A stretch of 64,000 nucleotides of DNA from Membranihabitans marinus (GCF_021729155.1 NZ_JAJQYA010000002.1:191348-255347), one strand, 5' to 3'. Shown: positions 1 to 61,329, counted from the first letter of the stretch. Translations and numbers: made by a program. The notes: generated by a model from the letters alone, not told the origin.

Positions 1-360
1 ATCGAATTACGTTGCAGTCACGCCTCGGCATGGGATCTTTCTTAGCCGAGAGGCGGAGCTCTCGGTTCCCTCGCCAAATACCGATTTACGGGCTCACCCA
101 TCCACGACACTGTGGTCGTGGCTCCTTCACCTAGGCTCACCCACCCGGAGCACAGCGGCTAAAAACCTATCGATTTATATTTCAGTCACGCCGGAGCACA
201 GTGGCTCCGGTTCCCTCGCCATTGATCCATTTAGGATCAATGGTGCTGCGCACTTCGCTCGGTCACACCCGATGGATGGATCCCTCGGTTCCTTCATCCA
301 ATTGATATTTAATCAATTGGGTTGCTCTTCGAGCAACTACATTCGGTCATGTTCTGTCAT
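1..360. repeat. GC-rich structured repeat element, truncated by the window start. Order of parts: CACGCC(T/G)(C/G)GGC-type units, hairpin CCGGAGC-ACAGTG-GCTCCGG, TTCCCTCGCC, hairpin CCATTGATCC/GGATCAATGG, hairpin CCAATTGAT/ATCAATTGG, hairpin GTTGCTC-TTCG-GAGCAAC, then CTACATTCGGTCAT.
   Basis: Direct reading of the sequence. The same hairpin1/TTCCCTC/hairpin/hairpin/TTCATTCGGTCAT architecture recurs at 50185-50280 and 42240-42400, and partly at 12520-12680. GC content is much higher than in the flanking AT-rich intergenic DNA. Confidence 0.6.
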
Positions 361-12253: not shown

Positions 12254-12519
12254 AAATTATTTGATCTATTCAGTGAGTTGAATATCTAATTAAAATTATA
12301 TGAATTAATATACGATATTAATTTAGTATAAGTATATTTAGTTGATTATTTTTTTGTTGTTTTTTATTTAAATGGTTTTGCAAAGTGTTATTTATTCCGG
12401 ATTTTAAATTATACCAAATGAGTTTATAATTGTCGGTAATCTTTCGATTTCTGTAGAGTACGAGCGAATGAAGTAGTCTGAAAGACTACTAAATGCCTAT
12501 TTTAAGACATTTGGATCTT

Positions 12520-12680
12520 GGATCTTCATTCGGTCGTATACTGCATTTGGTCATTATAGCTTGAGCCTGATTTTAGGAGACGCAGGGCCAACCCACACGA
12601 CATGGAGGTGAAGGAGTGAAGTGCGCAGCACCGTAGAGACGCAATGCCTTGCGTCTTCACTCATTCAATCAGACTTGGTC
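12520..12680. repeat. Partial copy of the GC-rich structured repeat family, in inverted orientation. Contains CTTCATTCGGTCGT...GGTCATT and the hairpin AGACGCAA-GGC-ATTGCGTCT.
   Basis: GGTGCTGCGCACTTC, as the reverse complement of 12612-12626, matches 237-251. CCTTCACCT blocks and the CATTCGGTC motif are shared with the copy at 1-360. Confidence 0.45.
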
Positions 12681-28276: not shown

Positions 28277-29353
28277 ATGATAAAGCGTTTGTTTTTTTCA
28301 ATCGGTCTTGCCTGTATGGCTGGAATGGTATTTTCATGCGGTTCGAATGGAGACCAAAAATCTGAGGAAGGTTCTATGAGTGATACAATGACAAAGGATG
28401 AAGTAAAATTAGTGGCCAATGAAGCTGAAAAGAAGGTAGAGGTATATATGGGGGACGACTTGTTTACGGCGTATATATATCCAGATAACATAGCCAAGCC
28501 AGTTCTTTATCCCATAGTGACGGCCAGTGGAAAGAGTCTAACACGGGGATTTCCATTGGATCCTATGCCGGGGGAGAGAGTTGATCACCCTCACCACGTA
28601 GGTATTTGGTTAAATTATGGAGATGTTAATGGATTGGATTTTTGGAATAATTCAGAGGCAATTTCTGCCGAGAAGAAAAGTGAATATGGAACCATCTATC
28701 ACAAAGGGATAAAAAAGATGGAGGGCAATACCTTAGTGGTAGAAGCCGAATGGAAGGATATCAATGGCCAAGTCTTGTTAAGTGAAGAGACTACTTACAA
28801 GTTTGACAGTGAAGGAGATAGCAGAAATATTTATCGAGAGACAAAATTGACTGCACAGGATAAAAAAGTAGATTTTACGGATAATAAAGAGGGGATGTTG
28901 GGTATTCGTGTAACCAGAGCCATGGAGTTGCCTTCCGATAAGCCAGCTGTATTTACCGATGCTGCAGGTAATCCTACCGAGGTTAAAGAATTGAACAACG
29001 ATGGAGTCAATGGAAATTATCTTTCAAGTGAAGGTATTGAAGGTGACGATGTTTGGGGGACGAGAGGTAAATGGATGGAGTTGTACAGTAATATCGACGG
29101 TGATCCTGTATCGATTACCGTAATGGACCACCCTACCAATGTAGGTTATCCAACATACTGGCACGCCAGAGGATATGGTTTGTTTGCGGCCAATCCATTG
29201 GGGCAAAAAGCAATGTCTGGTGGCAAGGAGGAGTTGAATTATTCTCTTGATCCAGGTCAATCAGTGACATTTAGATACAATATTTTGGTTCATTCCAATT
29301 CTGCATTAAGTGCCGACCAAATCAATGCAAAATACGCTGAGTTTGTAAAGTAA
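28277..29353 (+). CDS. Secreted lipoprotein of a conserved family, possibly the PmoA-like family (Pfam PF14100)
   Basis: Lipobox LACMAGMVFSCGS. Conserved blocks GERVDHPHHVGIWLNYGDVNGLDFWN and MDHPTNVGYPTYWHARGYGLFAANP. The family assignment is from memory and uncertain. Confidence 0.35.
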   Translation: MIKRLFFSIGLACMAGMVFSCGSNGDQKSEEGSMSDTMTKDEVKLVANEAEKKVEVYMGDDLFTAYIYPDNIAKPVLYPIVTASGKSLTRGFPLDPMPGERVDHPHHVGIWLNYGDVNGLDFWNNSEAISAEKKSEYGTIYHKGIKKMEGNTLVVEAEWKDINGQVLLSEETTYKFDSEGDSRNIYRETKLTAQDKKVDFTDNKEGMLGIRVTRAMELPSDKPAVFTDAAGNPTEVKELNNDGVNGNYLSSEGIEGDDVWGTRGKWMELYSNIDGDPVSITVMDHPTNVGYPTYWHARGYGLFAANPLGQKAMSGGKEELNYSLDPGQSVTFRYNILVHSNSALSADQINAKYAEFVK

Positions 29354-29422: not shown

Positions 29423-29559
29423 TTAGCCAAGAGGATTTCGATTAGCCATTATTCAAAGACGATAGGGAATAATGAAAAGGATATTGTCCAATGGTTTTGT
29501 CACACTGTTTGCCCCAAAAATCAATTATTAAAAATTCATTTGGTATAATACGAATTCCA

Positions 29560-29745
29560 TTACCCATTACCCATTAATCATTAATAATTAACCGTTAACC
29601 ATTAACCATTAATCATTGATAATTAACCATTGATAATTAACCATTGATAATTGACCATTGATAATTGACCATTGATAATTAACCATTAACCATTAACCAT
29701 TAATAATTAACCATTAATAATTGACCATTCTCCATTCTCGGATTA
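29560..29745. repeat. Heptad/14-mer microsatellite, (CCATTAA)n with variants CCATTAC, TCATTAA, CCATTGATAATTAA and CCATTGATAATTGA
   Basis: Read directly. About 25 heptad units lie between the terminator and the sulfatase 3' end. The reverse-complement motif ATGGTTAAT recurs at 48935-48980, 49325-49360 and 49835-49870. Confidence 0.8.
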
Positions 29746-31149
29746 CTTTTTAGCGGAATGATTTTTACTTGGATATTTCCCATTCGAAGCATCGATCATG
29801 GCAAATAATTCTTTTTTAAGGATGGCTACCTTGTCCGGATATCGTTTCGCCAAATTTACATTTTCAGATTCATCTACTGCTAAGTTGTATAGTTCACTTC
29901 GCTCATCTTCATAGAAATATATGAGTTTCCAATCACCTCGTCGCAAAGCCGATCCCGGAGTCCATGCACTGCCATGATAATGAGGAAAGTGCCAGAACAA
30001 AGGTCGGATAGCTGTTGATTTTATCCAATGCTTAGAAAGAATATCTTCTCCTTCCATTGTTGCAGTGGCCTTGGAATCTATATCTATATTCTCCAAGATA
30101 GTAGGGACTATATCCATATGAGTGACTGGTTTGTCACAGGTTTTATTATCTACATCTCCAGGGCTATGAATTAATAGTGGAATTCGTATTCCCCCTTCAT
30201 AACACCAACCCTTACCGCCTCTTTTGGGGAAGGTCGAAGTAGGTATCTTGCCTTTGTACTGATTATTTAAGGTAGATAGACCTCCATTGTCTGAAGTAAA
30301 TACCAATATGGTATTTTCCCATAGACCTTCATCCTTTAAATGTCTGACCAGCCGCCCTACATTGTTGTCCATAGCCGATACCATGGATGCGTAGTCTAGA
30401 TTGTCTTGAAAAATCAAGGATTGGCCTTCGCCTTCATTAGTTGTTTTGTGGTCGATACTTACATCGTTATACTTTGGCCTAAAGTCTTTATTGGCTTGAA
30501 TAGGAGTATGCACGGTGTAATAGGACAGATAGGCAAAGAAGGGCGAATCTTTGTGAGCTGTAATGAAATCTATGGTTTCCGTGGTCAATCTATCCGTTAA
30601 ATACTCACCTTCTGGACCATCTGGCAGGAGTGGATTTTTGTAGGGGACATAATAACCCCCAGGAGGTGAGCCTAGATCTATTCCTCCAACATTGATGTCA
30701 AATCCCTGTTGACTAGGAGAGTGCTCTTCACCACCTAAATGCCATTTTCCTGCAAAAAAAGTAGAATACCCATAATCTTTTAATCGTTCTGCCAAGGTGA
30801 TTTCCTTTAAAGGCAATTCGTGTAAGTCCTTTGGTCCTAGCAATGGCTTATCTTTAGGGTCACTACCAGGAATCCAGTCCGATATCCCGATTTTAATAGG
30901 ATTTTTACCGGTGAGTAATGCCGCACGTGATGGGGAACACACGGGATGTGCACTATAGGCATTGGAATAAATTACGGACTCACTGGCCAATGCATCGATA
31001 TTGGGAGTAAGGTACAACGGACTACCAGAATAGCCTAAGTCTTTCCATCCCAAGTCATCGACGAGGATAACCACAACGTTTTTTTGATCTTGACTATGAA
31101 GTGCAGTTGTTGCAAATACCAGTGTTAATGCTAGGAAAATTCTTTTCAT
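29743..31149 (-). CDS. Sulfatase (S1 family, formylglycine-dependent), secreted
   Basis: CSPSRAALLTG motif, the C-x-P-x-R formylglycine site. Signal peptide. 468 aa. Confidence 0.85.
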   Translation of the reverse strand: MKRIFLALTLVFATTALHSQDQKNVVVILVDDLGWKDLGYSGSPLYLTPNIDALASESVIYSNAYSAHPVCSPSRAALLTGKNPIKIGISDWIPGSDPKDKPLLGPKDLHELPLKEITLAERLKDYGYSTFFAGKWHLGGEEHSPSQQGFDINVGGIDLGSPPGGYYVPYKNPLLPDGPEGEYLTDRLTTETIDFITAHKDSPFFAYLSYYTVHTPIQANKDFRPKYNDVSIDHKTTNEGEGQSLIFQDNLDYASMVSAMDNNVGRLVRHLKDEGLWENTILVFTSDNGGLSTLNNQYKGKIPTSTFPKRGGKGWCYEGGIRIPLLIHSPGDVDNKTCDKPVTHMDIVPTILENIDIDSKATATMEGEDILSKHWIKSTAIRPLFWHFPHYHGSAWTPGSALRRGDWKLIYFYEDERSELYNLAVDESENVNLAKRYPDKVAILKKELFAMIDASNGKYPSKNHSAKK

Positions 31150-42239: not shown

Positions 42240-42400
42240 ACAACGGATTGGGTGGTTCGTATCACTTTTGGTCTCACTCAAAACGCGTGAGATTCGGTTC
42301 CCGCCCTTCGACTCGCCCAAGGAGAGGCATTCAATGGACATTTAGCCCATTGGATTGCTCAATAGAGCAACTTCATTCTGTCATTTTTCAAACTTTTTTA
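42240..42400. repeat. Copy of the GC-rich multi-hairpin intergenic element. Parts in order: hairpin CTCAC..GTGAG, TTCGGTTCCCGCC, hairpin CAATGG..CCATTG, hairpin TTGCTC-AATA-GAGCAA, then CTTCATTCTGTCAT.
   Basis: Shares the CGGTTCCC(T/G)C block and the 3' hairpin+CTTCATTC(G/T)GTCAT module with 1-360 and 50185-50280. Stem sequences differ but pairing is maintained. Confidence 0.55.
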
Positions 42401-48446: not shown

Positions 48447-48773
48447 TCATTTAAAGCCAACACTGATTATACTGAGTAAATACAATAGGATAGCGTATAC
48501 AGGAATTGTAAATAATAGGTATATGATCAGAATGAGACAAATGGATGCCATTAATGATTGTCCATAGTACATATAGCCACCACCAGGAATTAGGATGGCC
48601 AATAGCATAGCCGTTTTAGTTGACGTTTTTTCATCTTTTGAAATGGCTATATCGGCGTTTGATGAGTAATCTGAACTGTCTATATCCACTGCCGAACCAC
48701 AGTGTTGGCAGATGATATCATTTTCATTAATTAATTCATTGCAGAAGTAGCATTGGTAATTTTTCTTTCCCAT
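48447..48773 (-). CDS. Small membrane protein with an N-terminal zinc ribbon (hypothetical)
   Basis: CYFC...CQHC N-terminal CxxC pairs and two C-terminal TM helices. 108 aa. Confidence 0.4.
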   Translation of the reverse strand: MGKKNYQCYFCNELINENDIICQHCGSAVDIDSSDYSSNADIAISKDEKTSTKTAMLLAILIPGGGYMYYGQSLMASICLILIIYLLFTIPVYAILLYLLSIISVGFK

Positions 48774-48929
48774 AATTTTGATATTGAATGTTAAATCGAA
48801 TTTAAGATTAAGTAATGTTTCAATCTAATGGAATAGATATCCTTAAATATATGAATAATTATTTATTTTTAAATAATATGCAGGTAATAAATTTGGCTTT
48901 GTTGATAAAAGGCGGAACGAATAATTGAA

Positions 48930-50285
48930 GGGGAGTGGCTAATTATTAATGGTTAATGGTTAATGGTCAATGGTCAATGATGTGACTGAGAATAGTTGTC
49001 CTTTGTGCAACTTCATTCGTTCAATCACGACAATTCCACTCCTTTGGAGGGGTGTCAGATTACTGACGGGGTGGTTTGGAAATTCTGTAGGAAATATTAA
49101 AAATTAATTTTTTTCAATCGAACCAAACCGTCAGTTTTCATAAATACTAGCCATGCCCACTGTGGTATGACGAGATTACATAAGATTCTCTGTTGATTTA
49201 CGGTCCAATCACGCCGGAGCTAGACTTCCTGTTGATATGTGGTGTAATCACGCCGGAGTGAGATTCTCTGTTGATTTACGGTGCAATCACGCCGGAGCAT
49301 GAACGAATGAAATTGAGGAGTGTTGGTTAATTATTAATGGACAATGGTTAATTGTTAATTGTCATTCACGACAATTCCCCTCCTATGGAGGCATGTCAGT
49401 TTTCATAAATTCTAGTCAAGTCCACTTTGGCATGACGAGATTACATAAGATTCGCTGACGATTTAAGGGCAATCACGACTCGGCACATTGGAATTTTCCT
49501 TACAATTTTCGGTGCAATCACGCCGGAGCGAGATTTCACTGTTGATTTGTGGTGCAATCACGCCGGAGCGAGATTCTCTGTTGGTTTACGGTGCAATCAC
49601 GCCGGAGGTAGATTTCCTTACAATTTTCGGTGCAATCACGCCGGAGCGCAGTGGAATTTTCCTTACAATTTTCGGTGCAATCACGCCGGAGCGAGATTCT
49701 CTGTTGATTTACGGTCCAATCACGCCGGAGCTAGACTTCCTGTTGATACGTGGTGTAATCACGCCGGAGTGAGATTCTCTGTTGATTTACGGTGCAATCA
49801 CGCCGGAGCATGAACGAATGAAATTGAGGAGTGTTGGTTAATTATTAATGGACAATGGTTAATTGTTAATTGTCATTCACGACAATTCCCCTCCTATGGA
49901 GGCATGTCAGTTTTCATAAATTCTAGTCAAGTCCACTTTGGCATGACGAGATTACATAAGATTCGCTGACGATTTAAGGGCAATCACGACTCGGCACATT
50001 GGAATTTTCCTTACAATTTTCGGTACAATCACGCCGGAGCGAGATTCTCTGTTGGTTTACGGTGCAATCACGCCGGAGCTAGATTTCCTTACAATTTACG
50101 GTGCAATCACGCCGGAGGTAGATTTGCTTTCAATTTTCGGTGCAATCACGCCGGAGGTAGATTTGCTTTCAATTTTCGGTGCAATCACGCCGGAGCGCAG
50201 TGGCTCCGGTTCCCTCATCAAAGGTCGATTTACGACCTTTGGTTGCCCTAAAAGGCAACTTCATTCGGTCATCCACCAGACTTTT
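48930..50285. repeat. Higher-order tandem repeat block. About 16 copies of the 19-bp direct repeat GGTGCAATCACGCCGGAGC, spaced by 20-26 bp degenerate spacers and arranged in three sub-arrays. These are separated by about 190-bp modules that recur three times (period about 510 bp). Flanked by ATGGTTAAT heptads and ending in the family's terminal multi-hairpin element.
   Basis: Direct reading of the sequence. Sub-arrays lie at about 49203-49300, 49510-49808 and 50023-50200. The 190-bp modules lie at about 49060-49200, 49306-49495 and 49808-50005. The terminal element CCGGAGCGCAGTGGCTCCGG / CAAAGGTCG..CGACCTTTG / GGTTGCC..GGCAAC / TTCATTCGGTCAT spans 50186-50280. Confidence 0.85.
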
Positions 50286-51721
50286 GTGTTGATGTTGTCA
50301 GGGCCCATACGCTGAATCGCAGCTTGATAATTCGCCTGATTGACGGCTTGCTCAGATTCAGGATATAAATATCTCGCTGGATACCGACCTCCATTGAGAT
50401 TGTCAGGACCAGGTTTTAAATGCGGAATCCCAGTTCGACGTACATTAAACCATGCTTCGTGACCATTGCTGATTAAACTCAACCATTTCTGTGTCAGTAT
50501 TTTGTCTAAATGTTGCTCTCCATTTAATGCTATATTCTCCCTCGTAAAATAATCTTCTGGGATATCTGCTCCTAAATATTCAAAATGTGCCGTAATCCCA
50601 TTTACATAATACTCCTCTACATCCCCATCGATTAATCCACGTTCCACCGCTTCGGCTAAGGCAAATTGAAGCTCTGAATACAACATTATTTGACCGTCTA
50701 CACCATCGGCTACATCCCTGTATATAGATCCAAATAACGATATGTCGTTTAAATCAATTTGATTGGCCGCTATAGTCTCTCTGTTTTGACCATTGAGTAA
50801 TCCCTTGTATTGGGGATTCTTCGCACTGATGCTGGCCGCCGTTGGTTTGTATAAAATAGCCATTCGCGGATCATCCCATGAATGTAAAATCGAATCCACC
50901 GTTCGTGTCATCCGATGCTCTTGATATATACCCAGTCCAGCTTGGGACAACGGAAACTGATTCGGAGCCGCTCCGAGATAGGGAACAACGGCATTGTCCC
51001 CATTGCCACGCATAAGTGGAGCCGAATTAGCTAGATCCTCCAAAACACTGAAGTCGTCTATTTTATTGGAAATACGCAAGTAATATCTGACCTGCAATGC
51101 ATTGGCCAATCGAATCCATTGATCTAAATCATTGCCATACATCACATCACCTTGTATACGCGCCGTAGTTGAAGATAGGGTGCTGGCCGCCCGATTTAAA
51201 ATAGCCAATAACCCATTTTCATCATCTAAATATATATCTTCCTGCCTGTCGTATTGGGGTGTGGTGATACCTACACCTACCTTCAAGGCCTCAGTATAAG
51301 GTACATCACCCCATAAATCGGTAAGCTGTGAATAAATATAAGACTTTAAAATATCCCCAACCGCTTCATAGGCCTCATTGCTGGCTTCTACCGTCTGCAT
51401 GGATTCAATATCGGCCAATAAGTGGTAAAGTAAATTCCAATAAGTGGCATTACTTCCCAATTCGTATCGATCGATGCGCTCAAACTCTACACTTGCTGAA
51501 AATTGGGCTAAATAACTCGCTAACCTAAATCCTTGATTATAGGTGTTTTCATCCGCTAATACTGATATTACATTGGATAATAAAAACTGTGGATCGATGG
51601 ACTCCGACGCATTGGGATTTTGATTGATGCTTTCAAAATCACGACTGCAAGAAATTCCAATTCCAAAAAATATAATGAGAAATACAATATGGTTTTTCAT
51701 GGTATTAACTTTAAAATTCAC
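50261..51721 (-). CDS. SusD/RagB-family outer-membrane lipoprotein
   Basis: Lipobox (GISCSRD), TPR-like helical content, 486 aa. Lies immediately downstream of, and overlaps, a SusC-like gene. Confidence 0.85.
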   Translation of the reverse strand: MNFKVNTMKNHIVFLIIFFGIGISCSRDFESINQNPNASESIDPQFLLSNVISVLADENTYNQGFRLASYLAQFSASVEFERIDRYELGSNATYWNLLYHLLADIESMQTVEASNEAYEAVGDILKSYIYSQLTDLWGDVPYTEALKVGVGITTPQYDRQEDIYLDDENGLLAILNRAASTLSSTTARIQGDVMYGNDLDQWIRLANALQVRYYLRISNKIDDFSVLEDLANSAPLMRGNGDNAVVPYLGAAPNQFPLSQAGLGIYQEHRMTRTVDSILHSWDDPRMAILYKPTAASISAKNPQYKGLLNGQNRETIAANQIDLNDISLFGSIYRDVADGVDGQIMLYSELQFALAEAVERGLIDGDVEEYYVNGITAHFEYLGADIPEDYFTRENIALNGEQHLDKILTQKWLSLISNGHEAWFNVRRTGIPHLKPGPDNLNGGRYPARYLYPESEQAVNQANYQAAIQRMGPDNINTKVWWMTE

Positions 51722-54700
51722 TCTTTAAACTAATTCCAAAACTTCGAGTAGAAGGATAAGACATGTCCTCTACACCATAGGTGAAATTGCGCTCTTGTAC
51801 AGCATTGAGCTCAGGATCAAAATGTGGATTTTCTGTCCATAGCCATAAATTACTGCCCAAAAATCCCAATTTTAAACTTTGGAATCCAATGGCGGCACAG
51901 ATCTCTTCAGAAAAGCTATAATAAATTCCTATTTGCCGTAATTTTATATAACTGGCATCATAGAGAGCCGAAGCTTCATTGCCTCGATCATAGTAATTAT
52001 TGTAATATGTACTCGCCGGAACTACAGTAGTGTTTTCAACGTATTGGGGATTTTCATCACTGCCTATATTCACTACGCCATCGCCAATAATACCATTTTC
52101 ACGCCCCACTAGGGTTTCCGCCAAAACACCAGCGGTACTGCCTAGGGCCTTGGTTCGCGATACGATAGTCCCTCCCTGACGCCAATCGAATAATAGATTA
52201 AATGAAAAATTCTTATAAATCACTTCATTGCCCAGTCCCAAAGCGAAATCGGGATTGTAATTGCCCAATAACCGCAGTTGACCATCCTGAACCGGCAAAC
52301 CATTACTACCGTATAGCGTGCGGCCATCGACTTCTACAAATCCTGTACCGTACATGTCGCCAACACGTCCTCCTTCCTTGGCTATATAGAATACCTCGTT
52401 GGATCCGCCATCACCTCCGAAGATCTTGGCAGATCCAGTGACAAATTGATCGACTCCATTGGGCAATTCAGAAACCACACTCTCATATGTGGAAAAATTG
52501 ATATAGGCATTCCATTGAATATCATTGTTGCGTATCAAGCCACCACCAATTCGAGCTTCAAGTCCTTTGGTCACAACAATACCCCCATTTTCAATAATAT
52601 TGCCAAATCCCGTCGATTGGGAAATGGGACGACCGATGATTTGATTGATACTGGTATTTTCATAAATGGAAATTTCGGTTTGAATCCGATTGCCAAACAT
52701 CCACAATTCCATCCCTGCTTCCAAGGCGTTGAGTCGCTCTGGTTTTAACTCTGCATTCTTGAGGATGGTCTCATTGGTTACTCTAAAATTTGATCCGTAA
52801 TTTTGATTAAATAAAAAAGTATTGTTCAGTTGATAGGGATCGGTATCATTTCCTGCACTTGACATATTTACCCTTAATTTGAGGAAAGAAATATCCTCAG
52901 GAAGTTCAAAGGTATTGGATACTATAAAACTCAATCCCATCGAATAATAGGCAAAGGAATTGTCATCTATAGGTAAGGTACTGCTCCAATCGTTGCGCAA
53001 TGACATGTCCAAATACAATGAGGATAAATAACTCAAATTGATTAAACCGTAAAGACTATTGATTCTTTTGGTGAAATATTGACTATTTCCAACCAAGGGA
53101 TTTCTCGAGTTGGCCAGTGAGTAAATACCGGGGATGGAAAGTTGCGAAGCTTCGGCAAATTGATAATCGATTTTTTGGTCAAATCTATTGCCCCCAGCGG
53201 AAATCGAATAATTGATTTTATCTGCTATATTATTGGCATAGGTAAGGAGTAGGTCGGCATTGGTCTCTCGGTATTGTATCTGATCTTCTCGATAACTGCC
53301 GAATGGATTTCGGTTTGTACTGACTGCCCTTTGGAAATATCTATTGTCATGATAAATATCCAATCCATATCTAGTTCTCAAACTCAAATGTTCGGTAATG
53401 TCATAGTTGAGACTACCATTGCCCAATACTCTATTTTTATTGAAACTATTGGTGTTTTCAAATAACGTAAGGTAGGGATTGGTGAGCCATAGATAATTGA
53501 TGTCATAATGTTCTAGTCCTTCATATCCGGCTTGCCAGTAATTTGCCATTGAGGCGATATTGGTCTGCCTCCCCGTCCAATTGAATCCGTAAATTACATT
53601 TTCATAACCATAGCCCAGATTCGGTCTGTTGTTGCTTCTACTATTGACAAAACTGACATAACTGTCAAATTGAAGTTTGAGATGTAACTGTTGGTGAATA
53701 CCTATAGATATACCATCTCTTTTGAGGTCGGTATTAGGCAAAATCCCATTGTTGCGCAAGTTGTGGTAGGCGGCTCTAATTGATCCATTATCACCTTGAG
53801 ATTGAAAAGAAATATGATTTTGATTGGTGACTCCGGTTTCAAAAAAATCTCTAATATTATCTGGTCTCGATATCCATGGTGTCGGTGTCACAGGAGTATA
53901 ACTACCGTCGGCTAGTTGTCGAGAGAGAATATCGCCTGCCCGTACTACTTGGCCATTGATATCGGTCGATGGGCTGTCGAATTGGGGAATCATCAAACCA
54001 GCATCCAACTTGGGACCAAAACTCGATAATCCCCCATCGCTGATACCGGCTCCACTTCCATTGACAAAGGCGTATTGGCCGCCAGAACCTCCACCGTATT
54101 CATTTTGATAATCGGGCAAGGTCAATAGGGTTTCAAAGGTCAGTGAACTGGATAGGGTTATACCCATACCTTTTTTCTCACCTCCTCGTTTAGTATTAAT
54201 AACAACCACACCGTTGGCTGCTCTGGATCCATAAAGGGCAGCAGATCCCGCTCCTTTTAACACCGAGATGGATTCGATATCTTCTGGACTGATTTCCGCA
54301 GCCCCATTGCCAAAGTCAACTTCTTGTAGGGCGCCGTCATTGCTCAAGTCGCTGGTGATTAGTTGGTTGCTGATGGGGATGCCATCGACTACAAAGAGGG
54401 CTTGGTTGTCACCACTCAGTGAATTTTCACCCCGAATAATGATGCGTGACGAAGATCCTACTCCAGATGAGCCATTGGTTACCTGTAGTCCTGCTACCTG
54501 TCCTGCCAAACTATTGACCATATTGGTCATGGGCACTTGGGTAAATGCTTCTGCGCCCAGTTTTTCAACCGATGAGGAGAGGGCTTGTCTTTCCCGCTTG
54601 ATGCCAATGGCAGTCACTACAATTTCGTCAATTTGGCCGTAAGCTGTTTCCATCATTAAGCGGTCGGGAAACAATCCATTTTCGATAGTGAGTAGGACCT

Positions 54701-54956
54701 TGTTGTACCCTACATAGGAGACAATGATTTGAAAATCTTGTAAATCTGTAGTCAAGGTAAATTGTCCTACATCATCGGTGATGGCGTAGATAGATTGATC
54801 GACGATCTGGACCGAAGCCCCAATCAAGGGCTGGCCTTGATTGTCGACTACGGTAGATCGATAGTTAATAGTTTGTGAAAACAATGTACCTGCTGTCAAT
54901 GTGAGCAAGAATAATATATACGTTTTCATAAAAACTGATTTTAAAGTTATCGTCAT
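51711..54956 (-). CDS. SusC/RagA-family TonB-dependent outer-membrane transporter
   Basis: Signal peptide, a carboxypeptidase-regulatory-like N-domain, TonB box DEIVVTA, plug and a 22-strand barrel, with a terminal ...F. 1081 aa. True start may be MKTYILF at 54929. Confidence 0.9.
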   Translation of the reverse strand: MTITLKSVFMKTYILFLLTLTAGTLFSQTINYRSTVVDNQGQPLIGASVQIVDQSIYAITDDVGQFTLTTDLQDFQIIVSYVGYNKVLLTIENGLFPDRLMMETAYGQIDEIVVTAIGIKRERQALSSSVEKLGAEAFTQVPMTNMVNSLAGQVAGLQVTNGSSGVGSSSRIIIRGENSLSGDNQALFVVDGIPISNQLITSDLSNDGALQEVDFGNGAAEISPEDIESISVLKGAGSAALYGSRAANGVVVINTKRGGEKKGMGITLSSSLTFETLLTLPDYQNEYGGGSGGQYAFVNGSGAGISDGGLSSFGPKLDAGLMIPQFDSPSTDINGQVVRAGDILSRQLADGSYTPVTPTPWISRPDNIRDFFETGVTNQNHISFQSQGDNGSIRAAYHNLRNNGILPNTDLKRDGISIGIHQQLHLKLQFDSYVSFVNSRSNNRPNLGYGYENVIYGFNWTGRQTNIASMANYWQAGYEGLEHYDINYLWLTNPYLTLFENTNSFNKNRVLGNGSLNYDITEHLSLRTRYGLDIYHDNRYFQRAVSTNRNPFGSYREDQIQYRETNADLLLTYANNIADKINYSISAGGNRFDQKIDYQFAEASQLSIPGIYSLANSRNPLVGNSQYFTKRINSLYGLINLSYLSSLYLDMSLRNDWSSTLPIDDNSFAYYSMGLSFIVSNTFELPEDISFLKLRVNMSSAGNDTDPYQLNNTFLFNQNYGSNFRVTNETILKNAELKPERLNALEAGMELWMFGNRIQTEISIYENTSINQIIGRPISQSTGFGNIIENGGIVVTKGLEARIGGGLIRNNDIQWNAYINFSTYESVVSELPNGVDQFVTGSAKIFGGDGGSNEVFYIAKEGGRVGDMYGTGFVEVDGRTLYGSNGLPVQDGQLRLLGNYNPDFALGLGNEVIYKNFSFNLLFDWRQGGTIVSRTKALGSTAGVLAETLVGRENGIIGDGVVNIGSDENPQYVENTTVVPASTYYNNYYDRGNEASALYDASYIKLRQIGIYYSFSEEICAAIGFQSLKLGFLGSNLWLWTENPHFDPELNAVQERNFTYGVEDMSYPSTRSFGISLKSEF

Positions 54957-55948
54957 TTTAAATTGATGTATTGATAAGCTTGTTTCAACAACTGGGTTTT
55001 GCGGTTGAGATCAAGATTTAGGGGTAATTGAGCCAAACCCAATAGCCGTCTCATAACCTCTACTCCAGCACAAGCCAGACAGAGATCGACGTCGAGGGGA
55101 GCTTCGGTTTGATAGAGCTTAATTGCTGCATCGATGGTCGCTTGGTTTTGATCGGCCATCATTAAGTGGGCCAATAATACCCCAACTTCGAATTCGGGAA
55201 ATCCAAAAAAACAAAACTCAGGATCTATTATGTAAATACCACTATTGGTCTTTAGCCAGCTACCGGGAAAATAGTCTCCATGGAGTAGCGTGTCGCCATC
55301 GGCCAAATACCGCTGACCCAATTCTTCAATTTTGCTTTTAAGAGCGGTATCGGTTTTGTAATTCATCGCTACTTCCGCCAAACCAGGAGTGATGTTGTCC
55401 AAATCCAATCCATTGTCCATAATAAATGGATAATGAAAAATATGCTCGTGATTTAGTTTCCTCATTTCTCTATTGTGGATAACAAGTGGAGAATGATCAA
55501 CCTTAAATTGTTGATGAAGCCTGGCAATAAATGATACAATGGCTGTGAGATCTATTTTGTCGATTTTAGTCCCAGCCTTGTACAAGTGAGTAAAATCACT
55601 GGCAGCACCTAGATCTTCCAATAATAGAACATTGTTTTCAACGTCGGATTCTAGGATGCTTGGTGTTTGGGAGCTGAGTACTTCATCGGTTTGAACGAGT
55701 TGGTAAAAAGTCGCTTCTGATTGAATTCGATCTTCTGGAGCTGGAACTTGGGGATATTTTTCAACATAAGGTCGGCTCTGTTTAATGATAAATGTTCGGA
55801 TAGAAGTGACTACGCGAGCGGTGAAATTCATATTTCCTTCGCCGGGTACTTCTACCACATCTACGGTTTCACCATCTTGTAACCAAGATTGTGATTGTAA
55901 GTAATTTTGAATTTCAGAATTGTTGATGGTTAAGTGAGTGTAAATCAT
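54953..55948 (-). CDS. APH-fold kinase resembling the 5-methylthioribose kinase (MtnK) family
   Basis: GEGNMNFTARV, FIIKQSRPYVEKYP and LLHGDYFPGSWL....IIDPEFCFFGFPEFEVG align with MtnK blocks GDGNLNYVF, IIKQAVPYAKV and LIHGDLHTGS...VIDPEFAFYGPIGFDVG. The MtnK blocks are recalled from memory. 331 aa, shorter than the canonical 397. Confidence 0.55.
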   Translation of the reverse strand: MIYTHLTINNSEIQNYLQSQSWLQDGETVDVVEVPGEGNMNFTARVVTSIRTFIIKQSRPYVEKYPQVPAPEDRIQSEATFYQLVQTDEVLSSQTPSILESDVENNVLLLEDLGAASDFTHLYKAGTKIDKIDLTAIVSFIARLHQQFKVDHSPLVIHNREMRKLNHEHIFHYPFIMDNGLDLDNITPGLAEVAMNYKTDTALKSKIEELGQRYLADGDTLLHGDYFPGSWLKTNSGIYIIDPEFCFFGFPEFEVGVLLAHLMMADQNQATIDAAIKLYQTEAPLDVDLCLACAGVEVMRRLLGLAQLPLNLDLNRKTQLLKQAYQYINLK

Positions 55949-55977
55949 TTGATTCTGTTTTTTGGGTTTGAAAAAAT

Positions 55978-56901
55978 TTATAATAATGTTTGCATTAAGT
56001 TTCTATGATATTCTGGTACGACATCGTAGCAATATTTTACCCCATATCCAGGTTGATGATCACAGAGTAAATAATTTTTAAAGCTTTCTTTATCATTATC
56101 TACGATGGTATCGTCTATATGGATTTCGAGTCTGGCGTTTAAATTTTCCGAAATAATATCTTCTGGAGCAATGATGTAATGGCTGGCTAATACATCGAAA
56201 GGATTGAATCCTTCAGCTCCCTGATCGATCCACTGTGCCAACCAATTTCTAGAGTGCTTTTCCAAATATTGACAGCCCGCATCTCCAGTCTTCAATAAAT
56301 CCAAATCTCGAGCGGTAATCCAAACCTTATTCGATATTTCAAATGGACAAAGGGTAATGGAAACTCCCGCTTGAAACATGATTTGAAATGCCTGATTGTC
56401 GAGATCAAAGTTGAGGTCTCGAGCTCTATTTCCGCGATTGCCTATGCTGAAATAGTCGGTAGGTGATCTTCTGCCGGCTACCAAAACTACTTCTTGTATT
56501 TGATCCTTGAGCTCGGGATATTGAAGTAATAAGACTCCTATATTGGTCGCTGGACCAATGGCCATTATTGTCATTGGGCCTCGTTTAAGCTCTTCAGCTA
56601 GGGCGTCGACAGCCTCATTGTGTTCTATTTTTGCCAAGTCTATAGCTTGGCCATATCCTTTGAATACCGGGATGGAATAAGTGGCAAATTTTTCACTCAT
56701 TTCCACAGATAAAGCATAGGCGTTGTCTATAAGAGTATTGCCAAATACGGCACTAATGCCAGCAATATGGACGCTAGAAGAACGCATCAATTGCCACACC
56801 GCATATCCATCGTCGACATCGCAATAGCCACTGCGATGATGCCTTTTCATGCCGACGGATAAATCGGTGTCGATCCAGATTTTCTTTTTATTTGTAGTCA
56901 T
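55978..56901 (-). CDS. Nucleoside hydrolase (IU-NH family)
   Basis: N-terminal aspartate cluster WIDTDLSVG...DVDDGYA, compared with the DTDPGxDD consensus. 307 aa. Confidence 0.7.
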   Translation of the reverse strand: MTTNKKKIWIDTDLSVGMKRHHRSGYCDVDDGYAVWQLMRSSSVHIAGISAVFGNTLIDNAYALSVEMSEKFATYSIPVFKGYGQAIDLAKIEHNEAVDALAEELKRGPMTIMAIGPATNIGVLLLQYPELKDQIQEVVLVAGRRSPTDYFSIGNRGNRARDLNFDLDNQAFQIMFQAGVSITLCPFEISNKVWITARDLDLLKTGDAGCQYLEKHSRNWLAQWIDQGAEGFNPFDVLASHYIIAPEDIISENLNARLEIHIDDTIVDNDKESFKNYLLCDHQPGYGVKYCYDVVPEYHRNLMQTLL

Positions 56902-56936
56902 AGATTTGTATTTTATTATTTTGCTCTTACCGTTAT

Positions 56937-57689
56937 TTATGATGAAATAAAATTGGATGAAAGATCGCTTGCTATCCCATTCCAGAATTCGACTTCTGCT
57001 AGCACTCCTGTCGATTTGTCCTTCATAAAGTCAGATTTTTCCTTGTACACCTTGAGGTATCCAGCATCCATATAGGCTATTTCATCTCCCATTAATAAGG
57101 CTTCTTTGAGGTCGTGGGTCACAAATAGCGAGGTAATGTGAAATTGCTGGGCCAAAGATTTAAACAATGACTGCATGTTTTGCCTAGTCATGCTATCCAA
57201 ACTCCCAAAAGGTTCGTCTAACAGTAGGAGGGAAGGATTGGTGATGATGGCTCGACCAAAAGATACGCGTTGGCGTTGCCCGCCTGATAACTGTTGCGGC
57301 ATTTTGTGCTTATGGCCGGACAACTCTAAACTGTTGATCATAGATTCCACTTGGTCTTGAATTTCATCTTTGGATTTCTTCTGTATCCGAAGGCCGAAAG
57401 CGATGTTTTCAAAGACGGTGAGATGTGGAAACAGCAAGTCTTCTTGATATAGATATACGATATTCCTCTTTGCTGCTGGTTGTTCGGTAATGGTTTTATT
57501 GTTTAGACGAATAGTTCCAGAATCTGGTTTGATTAGACCTGCGATAATCTTTAGCATTGTCGTTTTGCCACAACCGGATTTACCCAAAATGCTTAAAGTT
57601 CGATTGTTCTCTAAGGTGAGTTGAAGATTCTTGACGATGGAATCGCTGCCAAATGCTTTGTTTATATTTTCAATGTGTAAGAAACTCAT
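56937..57689 (-). CDS. ABC transporter ATP-binding protein (importer type)
   Basis: Walker A GKSGCGKTT, LSGGQRQRV signature, Walker B LLLDEPFGSLD. Confidence 0.85.
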   Translation of the reverse strand: MSFLHIENINKAFGSDSIVKNLQLTLENNRTLSILGKSGCGKTTMLKIIAGLIKPDSGTIRLNNKTITEQPAAKRNIVYLYQEDLLFPHLTVFENIAFGLRIQKKSKDEIQDQVESMINSLELSGHKHKMPQQLSGGQRQRVSFGRAIITNPSLLLLDEPFGSLDSMTRQNMQSLFKSLAQQFHITSLFVTHDLKEALLMGDEIAYMDAGYLKVYKEKSDFMKDKSTGVLAEVEFWNGIASDLSSNFISS

Positions 57690-58456
57690 ATCAATTTGTT
57701 GAATACATATTTTTTATTGAAATAGATTAACAGGGCTGGTGGTAGAATAAGTAGACAACAGCTCATGGCACCGTAGTAAAAATTGGCTTCTTTAATAAAT
57801 AGAAACACCTTTATGGTCAATGTTTCCACCTTGCCTACACCGATAATGGAAGTTAAACCATATTCAAACCATGAGATTAAAAAGGTTTGAAAAAAGCAAA
57901 TCATCATTAGTGGACCGGCCATGGGGATTAATACTTTGGTATAAGTCGTCCAAGGATTGCCGCCCAGAGTAGCCACAAGGTTTTCGTATTCACGGGTTTG
58001 CTCTCCCCAATAACTGCTGAAAAATATTAGGGCGTAGGGAAAAGCTATAATAAATTGAGACAGAATGACTCCTGCAGTATTTCCAAATAAGCCTACTTTA
58101 ATGAAGTAAAAACTCAAGCAGGCTCCAAAGACCACTGGTGCTAATACATAGGGAAAGTAGGTGATCAATGTCCACAGTCGTTTTTTGGGATGATAATTGA
58201 CATATCGACTAATAAAAAAACCAGTAAGGGTAGCGGAAGTGGCTACCGAAAGAGAAATCACTAGAGAGAGGACAAAACTAGACAGCAATCCAGTTTCACC
58301 GCTGATGACTCGAGACCAGTTTCTGAGACCAAAATATTGAGGCCAAAGTTCTGGAAATCGCCAATCTGCAGAAAATGACAATATCAATAGATATATAAAG
58401 GGGAAAGCAATCAAAGCGATATAGATTCCCAAAGCTATATTTTTTACTTTAACCAT
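57686..58456 (-). CDS. ABC transporter permease
   Basis: Six TM helices and an EAA-like loop. Overlaps neighbours in an operon. Confidence 0.8.
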   Translation of the reverse strand: MVKVKNIALGIYIALIAFPFIYLLILSFSADWRFPELWPQYFGLRNWSRVISGETGLLSSFVLSLVISLSVATSATLTGFFISRYVNYHPKKRLWTLITYFPYVLAPVVFGACLSFYFIKVGLFGNTAGVILSQFIIAFPYALIFFSSYWGEQTREYENLVATLGGNPWTTYTKVLIPMAGPLMMICFFQTFLISWFEYGLTSIIGVGKVETLTIKVFLFIKEANFYYGAMSCCLLILPPALLIYFNKKYVFNKLI

Positions 58457-59327
58457 CTATTCGTATTGATTTTCGTCTTAAAAAAAGAAAAAGAGTCATG
58501 ATGGTTACCAGTACGGTATAAATTACGGCTACTACATAACCTTCTGATATTTTGGTTAAATCAAATTGTTTGAGTTCCCTGACTATGAGGACGGATAACA
58601 TTTGAGGGGATTCTTGACCTAGAATTAGCGGAATTTCATAAGCTCCTAAGAGAAATATATAATACAAGGCTATCAATGGCCAGGTTTTATGCAGTAGCAA
58701 TGGGATAGTGATACGACGTATGATTTGATTCGGACGACTTCCCAGTGAAGCGGCTAAAGATTCTAATTCTGCAATGCGTTCCGTTTTAAAAACCCCGATG
58801 AACAAGAGTAGAAAAAAGGGCATCACTACGCTGACAAAGGTAAGTATGATGCCGAAGCCAAAATCGTCGTTGATGAGGTCGGGAAATTCTTGGATATCTT
58901 TAATCCACCCTATTTGGTAGAACCATCTTGAAAAGTAACCTGATTTACTCAATATCTGAACGGCAAAAAAGGCAGATACAACACCGGGCAATGCCAGCGG
59001 TAAGTAGAGTAAAAATGATATCGTCTTATGTTGAATCTTTTTGTGAAACAGCAGGGTCAACCATAGGGCAATACCCACGGAAAATACCATGGCTATCAAT
59101 GCCATAAAGGCACTAAATCCAAAAGATTTAATAAATTCTCCCGATTCTAGGATTTCTTGCCAGTGCTCTATGGTGAATCCGCTATTGGCCACACCTACCA
59201 GTCCCAAACTATACAATAGGGCATAGATAAAGGATAGCGCAAAGGGGATGATGCCCAAAACTGCGAAAAACAATAAGCCTATATTTTGATATTTAGTTCT
59301 CAATGATATATTTTCTAAAGTCTTCAT
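58449..59327 (-). CDS. ABC transporter permease
   Basis: Six TM helices and an EAA-like loop (ELESLAASLGSRPNQIIRRITIP). Confidence 0.8.
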   Translation of the reverse strand: MKTLENISLRTKYQNIGLLFFAVLGIIPFALSFIYALLYSLGLVGVANSGFTIEHWQEILESGEFIKSFGFSAFMALIAMVFSVGIALWLTLLFHKKIQHKTISFLLYLPLALPGVVSAFFAVQILSKSGYFSRWFYQIGWIKDIQEFPDLINDDFGFGIILTFVSVVMPFFLLLFIGVFKTERIAELESLAASLGSRPNQIIRRITIPLLLHKTWPLIALYYIFLLGAYEIPLILGQESPQMLSVLIVRELKQFDLTKISEGYVVAVIYTVLVTIMTLFLFLRRKSIRIDG

Positions 59328-60510
59328 ACAATCTAATCATATACCTAGGGTCGGGTTCTTGGATAGCATATTCTTTCATATCATTCATCGAAATACCGTA
59401 TTCACGTCGGGTTATATTTTGAAATTTGGTTTTCCACTCATCTGGCAGTTGGTCGATATCCAATACGGTATTGGCATCCATGCCTTTGGGATCGGCTTTT
59501 TGTAATTGTGCTTCTGGCGACAACATATAATTTATAGCCACCAATGCCGCTTCTTTATTGGGAGCATTGTAGGCTATACCGAGATAATTGGTGTTTTTAA
59601 TAGTTCCGTTGGCCCAAGGATATGCTCTAGTAGTGTTGGGAAAAAGTCCCTGATGGATTTTATCATCGATAGCACCTTCGCCAAATCCAAAACCCAAATA
59701 GATTTCTCCATTGGCAAACATTTGGTCCATCTTGGTTTGCTCTTTGGGAAAAGTACTGCCTGCTTTCCATAAGTATGGTCGTATTTCTTCAATAAAGTCC
59801 CATAACTTTCCCGACCATTCTAGGTAATTATCTTCATTAAAAGGACCGTTTAGACCTTGGGAAGATCCACTTATTTCAGCTAAAAAAGACTTCAATAAAG
59901 TCATTCCAGAGAAATCATTGGATATGGTGAATGTTCCCGGATATTCTTGAACATAGGTTTTCAATTCGTCGAGGTTGGTGGGCGGATTGCTTATTTTGGC
60001 TGAATCGTATACCATAGCAAATTGGCTGATGGTCCAAGGACATTCCATATAATTGACTGGTTGTTGGAAGTCTATGCTGATAAATGGATCTTCGAAGTCT
60101 ACATATTGTGCATTGGGAAGACTTTCGACAAATGGGCCCCATAGTCCTTGTATTTGTCGAAGTTGAAAGAAGGTTTCACCGTTAATCCATACCATGTCTA
60201 CCTGTCCAGACTCCACATTGGCTTGTTTTTCGCCCATCATCAATTGCACAATCTCTGGCCCTTGACCTCCAATGACATTTAATTCAATATCGTAGTTGGC
60301 TTTCAATCGCGGTTTGACAAATTCCAAGATGTAATGATTGATCTCTGGAGAACCTTGCCACATCATAAAGTGGAGATCGGAACCTTTGGCTTGTTCCACT
60401 ATAGCCGACCATTCGGTGTTGGATAGATCTAAACTTGGTTTTTCCTGTGATGACTGACAAGCAGACCAAAGGCTGAAAACCAGTAATATATACCAGATAT
60501 TTTTCTTCAT
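59293..60510 (-). CDS. ABC transporter periplasmic substrate-binding lipoprotein
   Basis: Lipobox LWSACQSS. About 400-aa SBP fold. First gene of the minus-strand operon. Confidence 0.75.
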   Translation of the reverse strand: MKKNIWYILLVFSLWSACQSSQEKPSLDLSNTEWSAIVEQAKGSDLHFMMWQGSPEINHYILEFVKPRLKANYDIELNVIGGQGPEIVQLMMGEKQANVESGQVDMVWINGETFFQLRQIQGLWGPFVESLPNAQYVDFEDPFISIDFQQPVNYMECPWTISQFAMVYDSAKISNPPTNLDELKTYVQEYPGTFTISNDFSGMTLLKSFLAEISGSSQGLNGPFNEDNYLEWSGKLWDFIEEIRPYLWKAGSTFPKEQTKMDQMFANGEIYLGFGFGEGAIDDKIHQGLFPNTTRAYPWANGTIKNTNYLGIAYNAPNKEAALVAINYMLSPEAQLQKADPKGMDANTVLDIDQLPDEWKTKFQNITRREYGISMNDMKEYAIQEPDPRYMIRLYEDFRKYIIEN

Positions 60511-60621
60511 ATGTTTTAAAATGCTATCGTTGGCCTACCGAAAATAATTATCGACGGAATGCCCAAATCACAAAGTGAGTATATATAAAATGCTGGTAGA
60601 AGAAGTTTGATTTCTAAAACA

Positions 60622-61329
60622 TCAAACTAGTGAGTTCTGTGGTGGTGCTCTGAGAGAATTGTCCTTTAACCAATAGAATAAGGTCGGAGGAAAGGATTGA
60701 ATGAATAGAGGGCAGTGTGTAACGGCTAATAATCTTAATAGATTGATTTTGAGCCTAACACTGATGGTTGAGCCATGGGTGATTGTCCATAGATCTTGAC
60801 CATTGTTGATATCTCTTAGTCTTGGAAGTTCAAAGTATTGTTGAGTATTTTCGTGTATATACTCATTGAGGGCTGTATACAATTGATTGGTCTGCCAAGG
60901 TAGGATCTGAAAATCTATATAGTTAAAAGCGGTTTTAGTTAAACCGATTAAATAAGCACCGTCTCTCAAAGAAGGTCCAAGGACAGATCGACCTGCACTG
61001 ATGTTTTGAATGATATTTTCCCAGTCAAGACGATTCAATTCTAAGCAATCGTTACCCACGGTAATAATGGCTTCATAGCCTTGATCGAATATTTTTTGAT
61101 GGGCATTGGCCAATCGTTCACCAAAATTTTGACCGATTTGCTGTCTTTCATCATAGTGATGAATGGAAAGACCTGTTTGTTTCAGTATTGATTTGTTGTA
61201 GGTATTAAACAGGCGTGCTATAGAAAGATTACTTTTCCTAGAGCCCTTTTTTAACCATGTCTTCCGTTGAATTTCACATTCAGCAGATAAGCTAAAAAAC
61301 AAAATCGCTATGTTTTCTCGACAAATCAT
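60622..61329 (-). CDS. DUF2064-like nucleotidyltransferase-fold protein (hypothetical)
   Basis: IAILFFSLSAE..KTWL N-terminus and an AIITVGNDCLEL block resembling DUF2064/TIGR04282 motifs. From memory, uncertain. Confidence 0.35.
   Translation of the reverse strand: MICRENIAILFFSLSAECEIQRKTWLKKGSRKSNLSIARLFNTYNKSILKQTGLSIHHYDERQQIGQNFGERLANAHQKIFDQGYEAIITVGNDCLELNRLDWENIIQNISAGRSVLGPSLRDGAYLIGLTKTAFNYIDFQILPWQTNQLYTALNEYIHENTQQYFELPRLRDINNGQDLWTITHGSTISVRLKINLLRLLAVTHCPLFIQSFPPTLFYWLKDNSLRAPPQNSLV

Follow-up and report, generated by a model that had tools for sequence, protein, structure and literature searches.

At the 3' end of a SusD-like gene of Membranihabitans marinus (Saprospirales, Bacteroidota) lies a 1.35-kb non-coding cluster of short direct repeats, heptamer tracts and hairpins. 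We analyzed this array within a 64,000-nucleotide (nt) stretch of DNA, hereafter the window, whose sequence is carried by the draft whole-genome shotgun contig BAABLJ010000019.1 (GCA_039544285.1); coordinates are positions in the window unless labelled L029, L050 or L051. A preliminary description, made from the sequence alone, had presented the region as a higher-order tandem array that is neither CRISPR nor a simple minisatellite, and this descriptive part proved right. By implication the locus was also singular and unclassifiable, a reading that is not supported: its building blocks recur in several intergenic regions of the same genome and fit the class of BOX, BIME and STAR repeats. As argued below, the region is probably a cluster of lineage-specific, mosaic small interspersed repeats of this class, grown by slippage and unequal recombination.

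Architecture of the array at the susD locus

The most regular component of the array is a 19-mer, GGTGCAATCACGCCGGAGC, which is found 16 times at 49202-50196, always on the + strand and with no more than two mismatches. Chance would account for 0.01 matches, and 16 were reached in none of 100 shuffles. The distance from start to start is 39 nt, except for one of 40 and one of 45, and Tandem Repeats Finder (TRF) returned three arrays of period 39 (49183-49298, 49505-49809 and 50006-50196). The exact 18-mer used in the database searches below occurs about ten times in the window. These results agree with the earlier count of about 16 direct repeats at a period of about 39-45 bp. The intervening 20-mers, which had been described as non-unique spacers of recurring types, do come back as listed. 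Their mean pairwise identity is 67%, compared with 94% across the 19-mers, which means that the diverged tandem unit is the full 39 nt, of which one half is strongly conserved. Thus, the inter-repeat 20-mers are diverged copies of one another and not true spacers. Two additional, degenerate units (GGGCAATCACGACTCGGCAC) lie at 49467 and 49978, within the second and third of the modules considered next. The 39-nt units showed no excess folding on either strand (z = +0.11 on the + strand and -0.03 on the - strand).

The units are interrupted by three modules of roughly 190-300 nt, which start near 48916, 49299 and 49810 and are followed by three, eight and five units, respectively. Module 1 is 80-85% similar to the other two in their common parts and contains about 100 extra nt. 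All modules open with an inverted copy of the tail end of the repeat family described below (94% complementarity to its forward counterpart over 16 nt); in module 1 this is the inverted pair 48916/49007, where the degenerate forward hairpin 3 and tail end pair inversely with 48916-48932 and the heptamers lie between. The heptads previously noted at the module edges are tracts of TTAATGG / GTTAATT in 4.9-5.3 copies at the 5' side of every module, the third of them at 49837-49873 by TRF. Hairpins of the module 1 body include CCACTCC-TTT-GGAGGGG (49036-49052), GTCAG-ATTA-CTGAC (49054-49067) and a long one, GACGGGGTGGTTTGG...CGAACCAAACCGTC (49065-49132), which is deleted from modules 2 and 3; those of module 2 are AATTGTC/GACAATT and CCTCC/GGAGG. 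A second genomic copy of the module lies at 9085-9300 of L029, a 9.3-kb stretch read upstream of the window. The long hairpin is better paired there, and the CCCCTCC/GGAGGGG hairpin block of the modules recurs at L029 9100-9230. Judged by their sequence, the modules are built from pieces of the family.

A module of about 190 bp, present three times, had been thought to give the array a 510-bp super-period. Three modules are indeed present, but the apparent super-period of about 511 nt is one recent segmental duplication and not a threefold period. Segment 49183-49531 equals 49694-50042 at 347 of 349 positions (2 mismatches), with an offset of 511 nt.

A dispersed repeat family with a structured tail

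Comparison of the region with the rest of the window, followed by a reading of the matches and of L029, revealed that its parts are dispersed. Four blocks recur, namely the head joined to an arm of hairpin 1, the tail with its three hairpins, the module bearing the CCCCTCC/GGAGGGG hairpin, and heptamer tracts. Related pieces lie at 1-370, 12455-12665 and 42240-42395 of the window and at 1-330, 1900-2450 and 8560-9291 of L029. These other clusters contain heads, hairpins 1-3, ..GTCAT end repeats and GAGACGCAAGGCATTGCGTCT hairpins in both orientations, with two to four units ahead of a tail. All family copies seen are intergenic or sit at the extreme 3' end of a gene, and family repeats make up about 5% of the 73 kb examined. 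In the preliminary description, a genome-wide search showing the array to be the terminal repeat of a single common insertion sequence was to refute the observation. A common dispersed repeat is what emerged, but no insertion sequence was identified.

The elements of the family share one order of parts: a head, CA[AG]TCACGCC; hairpin 1 (for example CCGGAGC-nCAGTG-GCTCCGG); (G)TTCCCTC; hairpin 2, with the loop ATTTA; TGG; an optional hairpin 3 of the form GTTGCnn...nnGCAAC; and the end ACT(A/T)C(A/G)TTC(G/A/T)GTCAT, sometimes with one or two further 10-nt ..GTCAT repeats. The end motif of 10 nt (..TTCGGTCAT) is thus present in one to three copies per element. The complete tail at the susD locus begins with the head CAATCACG, followed by hairpin 1 (CCGGAGC at 50190-50196, GCTCCGG at 50203-50209), TTCCCTC, hairpin 2 with its ATTTA loop (50219-50241), hairpin 3 (50242-50259) and the end TTCATTCGGTCAT (50260-50272). 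On the susD-sense strand these three consecutive hairpins fold with -39.5 kcal/mol (z = -3.9), in line with the multi-hairpin element said earlier to terminate the array.

With a covariance model, R1, trained on eight family copies, we found 11-12 non-redundant tail copies in the 73 kb, distributed over at least five or six intergenic regions. Matches from outside the training set were obtained at L029 8755, L029 1-76 and window 40-130, as well as in two truncated copies from a close relative (L030 and L031), neither of which had been used for training; three loci of more distant relatives gave no match. The stems vary in a concerted manner. In hairpin 2, eight of the nine pairs are changed on both sides while 97% of cells remain paired, and six different stems enclose the constant ATTTA loop. 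The covariation score of the whole three-helix structure was 0.534, compared with 0.174 for shuffles and at most 0.213 for slid controls.

The units of the array can be related to this element. The 19-mer consists exactly of the family head and, as its 3' end, CCGGAGC, which is the 5' arm of hairpin 1; the 45-nt unit keeps the hairpin-1 loop GCAGTGG; and the ...GATTTAC of the units is similar to hairpin 2 in its 5' arm and loop. For these reasons we infer that each 39-nt unit derives from the family element by truncation and loss of the stem.

The junction with susD is closer than the adjacency first reported. The array does adjoin the 3' end of the gene, but the 12 nt that close the tail (TCATTCGGTCAT) also form the reverse complement of the final three SusD codons and the stop (ATG ACC GAA TGA = MTE*), and the three tail hairpins overlap the stop codon. 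In 60 SusD homologues, the closest relative excepted, the C-terminus is WW (in rare cases WY or WQ) plus one to three other residues; WWMTE* is common only to this close relative, whose SusD is 89% identical and which is represented by two Logan metagenome assemblies. Hairpin 3 follows its WWMTE*, and both independent contigs end 18 nt past the stop, inside the hairpin, which is the behavior expected of a dispersed repeat in short-read assembly. In Portibacter lacus and in a contig from the JGI collection (SusD 67% identical) the operon is kept, and the 683 and 150 nt downstream of it contain neither the array nor an R1 match. Because the close relative shares the tail and these distant relatives have no array, the tail insertion is older than the divergence of M. 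marinus and this relative, and the cluster is lineage-specific.

Among 185,579 GTDB species representatives the exact 18-mer had 27 single matches in unrelated taxa, about the estimated chance number, and no arrays. The tail pattern had 18 matches in JGI and ENA metagenome contigs, all attributable to chance (human-gut coding sequence; singletons without hairpins), and none in viral contigs. No Rfam 15 family reached its gathering score anywhere in the window, and at a permissive threshold region 48780-50330 gave chance-level matches only (E > 1). The sole blastn match in phage and plasmid collections was an AT-rich chance match. In the literature, nothing was retrieved for the assembly accession, and the five papers retrieved that name the genus Membranihabitans did not appear to deal with genome repeats.

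Heptamer tracts were also seen apart from the array. At 29557-29727 of the window, between the convergent genes for a DUF6807 protein (28277-29353, +) and a sulfatase (29743-31149, -), a 170-nt tract consists of CCATTAA / CCATTGATAATTAA heptamer and 14-mer repeats, which correspond to the TTAATGG heptamers of the array modules read on the opposite strand. A different tract, CCGTTAA CCGTCAA CCGTTCA CCGTC, occurs in the relative from the JGI metagenome (L051 7555-7590), within the 150 nt after its SusD gene, which suggests that genes of this group are often followed by such tracts.

To the right of the array extends a conserved operon on the - strand that encodes an ABC transporter, a nucleoside hydrolase, an APH-type kinase, SusC and SusD. 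This gene set (window 50261-61329, -; L050 and L051), including an inosine-uridine nucleoside hydrolase, is common to P. lacus and the metagenome contig and looks like a nucleoside-utilization locus. To the left lie an open reading frame (ORF) of 108 amino acids (-) and a beta-barrel gene of 207 amino acids (+). The 108-residue ORF (48447-48773, -) is an orphan with an N-terminal CxxC...CxxC zinc ribbon, two predicted membrane helices and a weak DZR match; an annotation exists in a different M. marinus assembly (on a 301,686-bp contig) but not in GCA_039544285.1, and the ORF has no homologues outside the species among 5.8 billion proteins. The left flank, 48780-48915, is AT-rich, with 23-27% guanine plus cytosine (GC). 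A scan for sigma-70 promoters did not rise above shuffles, and terminator-like matches were rejected, being the repeated unit itself. When 30 ORFs of the window, including all large ones near the array, were scanned against Pfam, no cas, transposase, RAYT, recombinase or partition domain was found. Farther away, an ORF of 1436 residues (18197-22507, -) joins a full AcrB/RND transporter (residues 5-1029) to a C-terminal outer-membrane efflux protein (OEP) domain (1274-1433), an unusual fusion or possibly a missed stop or frameshift.

Table 1. Positions of the array components and of the adjoining gene in the window.
Feature	Position	Strand	Basis
Start of module 1, inverted family tail end GGAACGAATAATTGAAGG (cf. 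reverse-complemented tail ATGACCGAATGAAGTTG)	48916..48945	+	three-module alignment; inverted repeats I1/I2, 16 nt, 94% complementary
Heptamer tract (TTAATGG/TCAATGG), 4.9 copies	48946..48979	+	TRF period 7, 96% matches
Degenerate forward hairpin 3 and tail end GTTGTCCTTTGTGCAAC TTCATTCGTTCA	48995..49025	+	direct repeat D5 with 50255-50283; inverted repeats I1/I2
Hairpin-rich body of module 1	49026..49135	+	alignment to L029 9085-9300
39-nt units 1-3 (19-mers at 49202, 49241, 49280)	49183..49298	+	TRF, pattern search
Module 2: inverted tail end 49300-49315, heptamers 49326-49362, degenerate unit 49467-49486	49299..49510	+	TRF, repeats, alignment
39-nt units 4-11 (one of 40 nt, one of 45 nt)	49511..49809	+	pattern search; fold z-scores +0.11 / -0.03
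Second copy of the 349-nt duplication: three units, module and one unit	49694..50042	+	comparison with the first copy, 49183-49531
Module 3, identical to module 2	49810..50021	+	alignment
39-nt units 12-16	50022..50196	+	TRF, pattern search
Complete family tail	50184..50272	+	best R1 match, 101.9 bits, E 8e-23 (training sequence); fold; covariation
SusD-like gene	50261..51700	-	translation; Pfam SusD-like_2, E 2.4e-81

Origin of the cluster and competing explanations

We propose the following account. One complete element, lying at the 3' end of susD, contributes the last three codons and the stop. Upstream of it, the head, the 5' arm of hairpin 1 and a degenerate remnant of the rest of the unit (the "spacer") would have been amplified tandemly as stemless 39-nt units, interleaved with a second module of the family that comprises inverted tail ends, the heptamer tract and hairpins. 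The units would expand and shrink through slipped-strand mispairing and unequal recombination, as do boxB arrays and STAR loci (PMC3049150, PMC3532100), and the single 511-nt-offset duplication created the apparent super-period. Spread of the family would presumably rely on an enzyme recognizing the conserved head, loop and end motifs, and by analogy a REP-associated Y1 (HUH) transposase is the leading candidate. The three hairpins just past the susD stop would stabilize, protect, attenuate or terminate the mRNA 3' end, in the manner of REP/BIME and BOX elements (PMC2817692, PMC3049150), while the unit array itself may be without function. It is not a new defense or RNA system.

Several observations weigh against this account. 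No transposase, RAYT or recombinase domain was found in the scanned ORFs, and no target-site duplications were identified. The family is without the classical GTAG/CGTC tag of REP, and its hairpins are mostly direct and not alternating. The 19-mer is conserved far above the rest of the unit. Neutral tandem duplication alone does not account for this difference, which is a hint that the 19-mer is under constraint, for example as a site of binding or recognition. No M. marinus match to the exact 18-mer came from the GTDB representatives; either the collection has no representative of the species, or the array is lacking, broken or masked in it. Finally, copy numbers may be wrong because the source is a draft assembly from a sequencing platform that is not established, and the genome-wide copy number is an extrapolation from the approximately 83 kb examined of this one draft genome.

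The excess conservation of the 19-mer would also suit a multi-site binding platform, on which 16-18 copies at a spacing of about 39 nt would titrate or organize a lineage-specific protein, either on DNA, in the manner of iterons, centromeres or operators, or as a non-coding RNA sponge like CsrB/RsmZ. The 94% identity of the 19-mer against 67% in the rest of the unit speaks for this idea, and at other loci no single-stranded part of the family is better conserved than the head core CA[AG]TCACGCC; yet the head could also be conserved as the recognition sequence of the mobilizing enzyme. Upstream of the array, at 48888 (+), there is a Bacteroidetes -7-like motif, TAAATTTG, and for heptamer direct repeats of Bacteroidetes a role as protein-binding sites has been proposed (PMC4679880). 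In contrast, the scanned ORFs next to the array include no par genes, no regulator and no protein that might be the binding partner, arrays at other loci have just two to four units of mixed type, transcription of the array is hypothetical, and the RNA of the units has no predicted structure. On balance we regard a binding platform as unlikely.

An assembly artefact would leave the family real and the locus mis-sized, in that the assembly would have produced part of the 39-nt repetition and of the 511-nt-offset duplication. A near-perfect duplication of 349 nt at this offset would be hard to resolve if the assembly came from short reads, and it stands in a draft shotgun contig; the assemblies of the close relative break exactly at the tail, and the exact 18-mer was unmatched in any M. 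marinus contig among the GTDB representatives. The contig is nevertheless continuous through the region over 403 kb. Moreover, the two copies of the duplication differ at 2 positions and their flanking units differ, which argues that both copies are real and not one read path used twice. We therefore give this explanation only a small chance.

A bolder proposal is that the family is an undescribed type of hairpin-guided mobile or functional element in Saprospirales, whose 19-mer head would be recognized by a dedicated Y1/HUH enzyme or by an RNA- or DNA-binding regulator, and whose array of 16-18 sites would serve as a functional platform and not be inert debris, for example as a sponge or nucleation site for the susCD operon or genome-wide. 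We consider this quite improbable.

The period of 39 nt equals 13 codons, and frame 1 of the + strand reads GAITPE-x-D-x-L-x-I-[YF], so that the array might be a decayed or still translated protein-coding repeat. The 45-nt unit would add 15 codons, frame 1 is open across several units, and some differences between unit types in this frame are synonymous (GAT/GAC, CTG/CTT, ATT/ATA). But TGA occurs in frame in units 2 and 10, the 40-nt unit shifts the frame, the modules interrupt it, the two other frames are just as open, and elsewhere the head motif stands in plainly non-coding mosaic contexts, where it forms half a hairpin. Public annotation does place hypothetical proteins in the array, one of 87 residues (GCM10025777_10770; 50052-50315, +) and one of 63 residues (49581-49772, +). 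Because the 87-residue ORF matches only itself among 5.8 billion proteins, both calls are almost certainly spurious, and a coding origin has very little to recommend it. A CRISPR-like array, with a transcript from the AT-rich, leader-like left flank (48780-48915) cut at the repeats into guide-like small RNAs, is largely refuted and just as hard to credit, for its regular layout of repeats and "spacers" on one strand is set against mutually homologous, recurring spacers, unfolded units, no phage, plasmid, viral or Rfam match and no cas domain in the scanned ORFs.

If the mosaic-repeat account is true, M. marinus has a dense, undescribed family of mosaic intergenic repeats, amounting to the share of the examined sequence given above. 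The family would rewrite gene 3' ends, as in the last codons and stop of SusD, break short-read assemblies of relatives, and yield spurious "hypothetical proteins" in annotation. The combination of variable stems, a conserved ATTTA loop and a strongly conserved single-stranded head points to specific recognition by a protein, and this pattern could help to find the enzyme that mobilizes small repeats in Bacteroidota.

Comparison with known repeat systems

CRISPR repeats are about 24-48 nt long and usually partly palindromic, and their spacers are unique and foreign. The array shares with them regular direct repeats on one strand and an AT-rich flank. It differs in that its repeat, at 19 nt, is too short and non-palindromic, its spacers are non-unique and homologous, no cas genes occur in the 30 ORFs, and no protospacer-like match was found.

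Tandem heptamers resembling those of the modules are known as the TAACTGA type from Beggiatoaceae, Cyanobacteria and some Bacteroidetes, where they are intergenic, number 4-25 copies and place stops in all frames (PMC4679880). Intergenic heptamers likewise stand here at each module and at 29557-29727. Unlike the TAACTGA type, the heptamer is TTAATGG / CCATTAA, is embedded in a larger mosaic and, in its TCAATGG form, resembles the 3' arm of family hairpin 2 (..TCAATGG).

STAR elements of Staphylococcus aureus consist of 14-bp direct repeats at least 40 bp apart, with recurring sequence between them and locus-specific expansion (PMC3532100). Like them, the array has a short, GC-rich direct repeat and a recurring, locus-specific spacer of about 40 bp, and the family is intergenic, present at several loci per genome, prone to local expansion and contraction, and of no known function. 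The STAR consensus, T(G/A/T)TGTTG(G/T)GGCCC(C/A), is absent from the array and has one match with 2 mismatches elsewhere in the window, where 3.4 would be expected, and STAR has no multi-hairpin tail or heptamer modules.

The REP/BIME/REPIN repeats, mobilized by RAYT Y1 transposases (PMC2817692, PMC3733652, PMC6006769), are also short extragenic hairpins with conserved single-stranded flanks. They too lie at gene 3' ends and between genes, in mosaic clusters that are tandemly reiterated with flanking DNA (PMC3733652) and contain inverted pairs. Y1/HUH REP-associated transposases with atypical hairpins are known from Bacteroidetes (PMC6006769), and a RAYT subclass of that group is associated with "atypical secondary structures". 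In contrast to REP, the tetranucleotide 5' of hairpin 1 is CACG, TGG follows hairpin 2, GTAG/CGTC is absent, and the stems vary widely among copies while the loop is conserved. In contrast to BIME, all 16 units and the tail are direct, and inversion is confined to short fragments of the tail end where the modules begin. REP is defined by more than 100 copies per genome and a cognate RAYT gene; here 11-12 tail copies were counted in 73 kb, and the scanned ORFs contained no Y1 transposase.

BOX of Streptococcus pneumoniae and S. suis is similar in layout. It has the form boxA-(boxB)n-boxC, with variable boxB arrays, and affects co-transcribed genes (PMC3049150). Both BOX and the array combine a head, a variable tandem internal module of about 40 nt and a structured tail. 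Both BOX and the present family are intergenic, dispersed and often clustered with other repeats, can alter gene ends, are predicted to fold on co-transcription, and vary in the number of their internal modules. However, no sequence relationship has been demonstrated and the phylum differs. Membership in BOX cannot be claimed. BOX has terminal inverted repeats and target-site duplications, whereas here 16-nt inverted repeats match the tail end, no duplication was recognized, and no empty site is available for comparison. Unlike boxB, the internal unit would be a truncated derivative of the tail, and its 16-18 copies fall into several subtypes. Although it matches the sequence criteria of neither REP nor STAR, the family is by its architecture a new, lineage-specific member of the composite small interspersed repeats, adding a Bacteroidota example to the BOX/BIME/STAR class rather than a new biological category.

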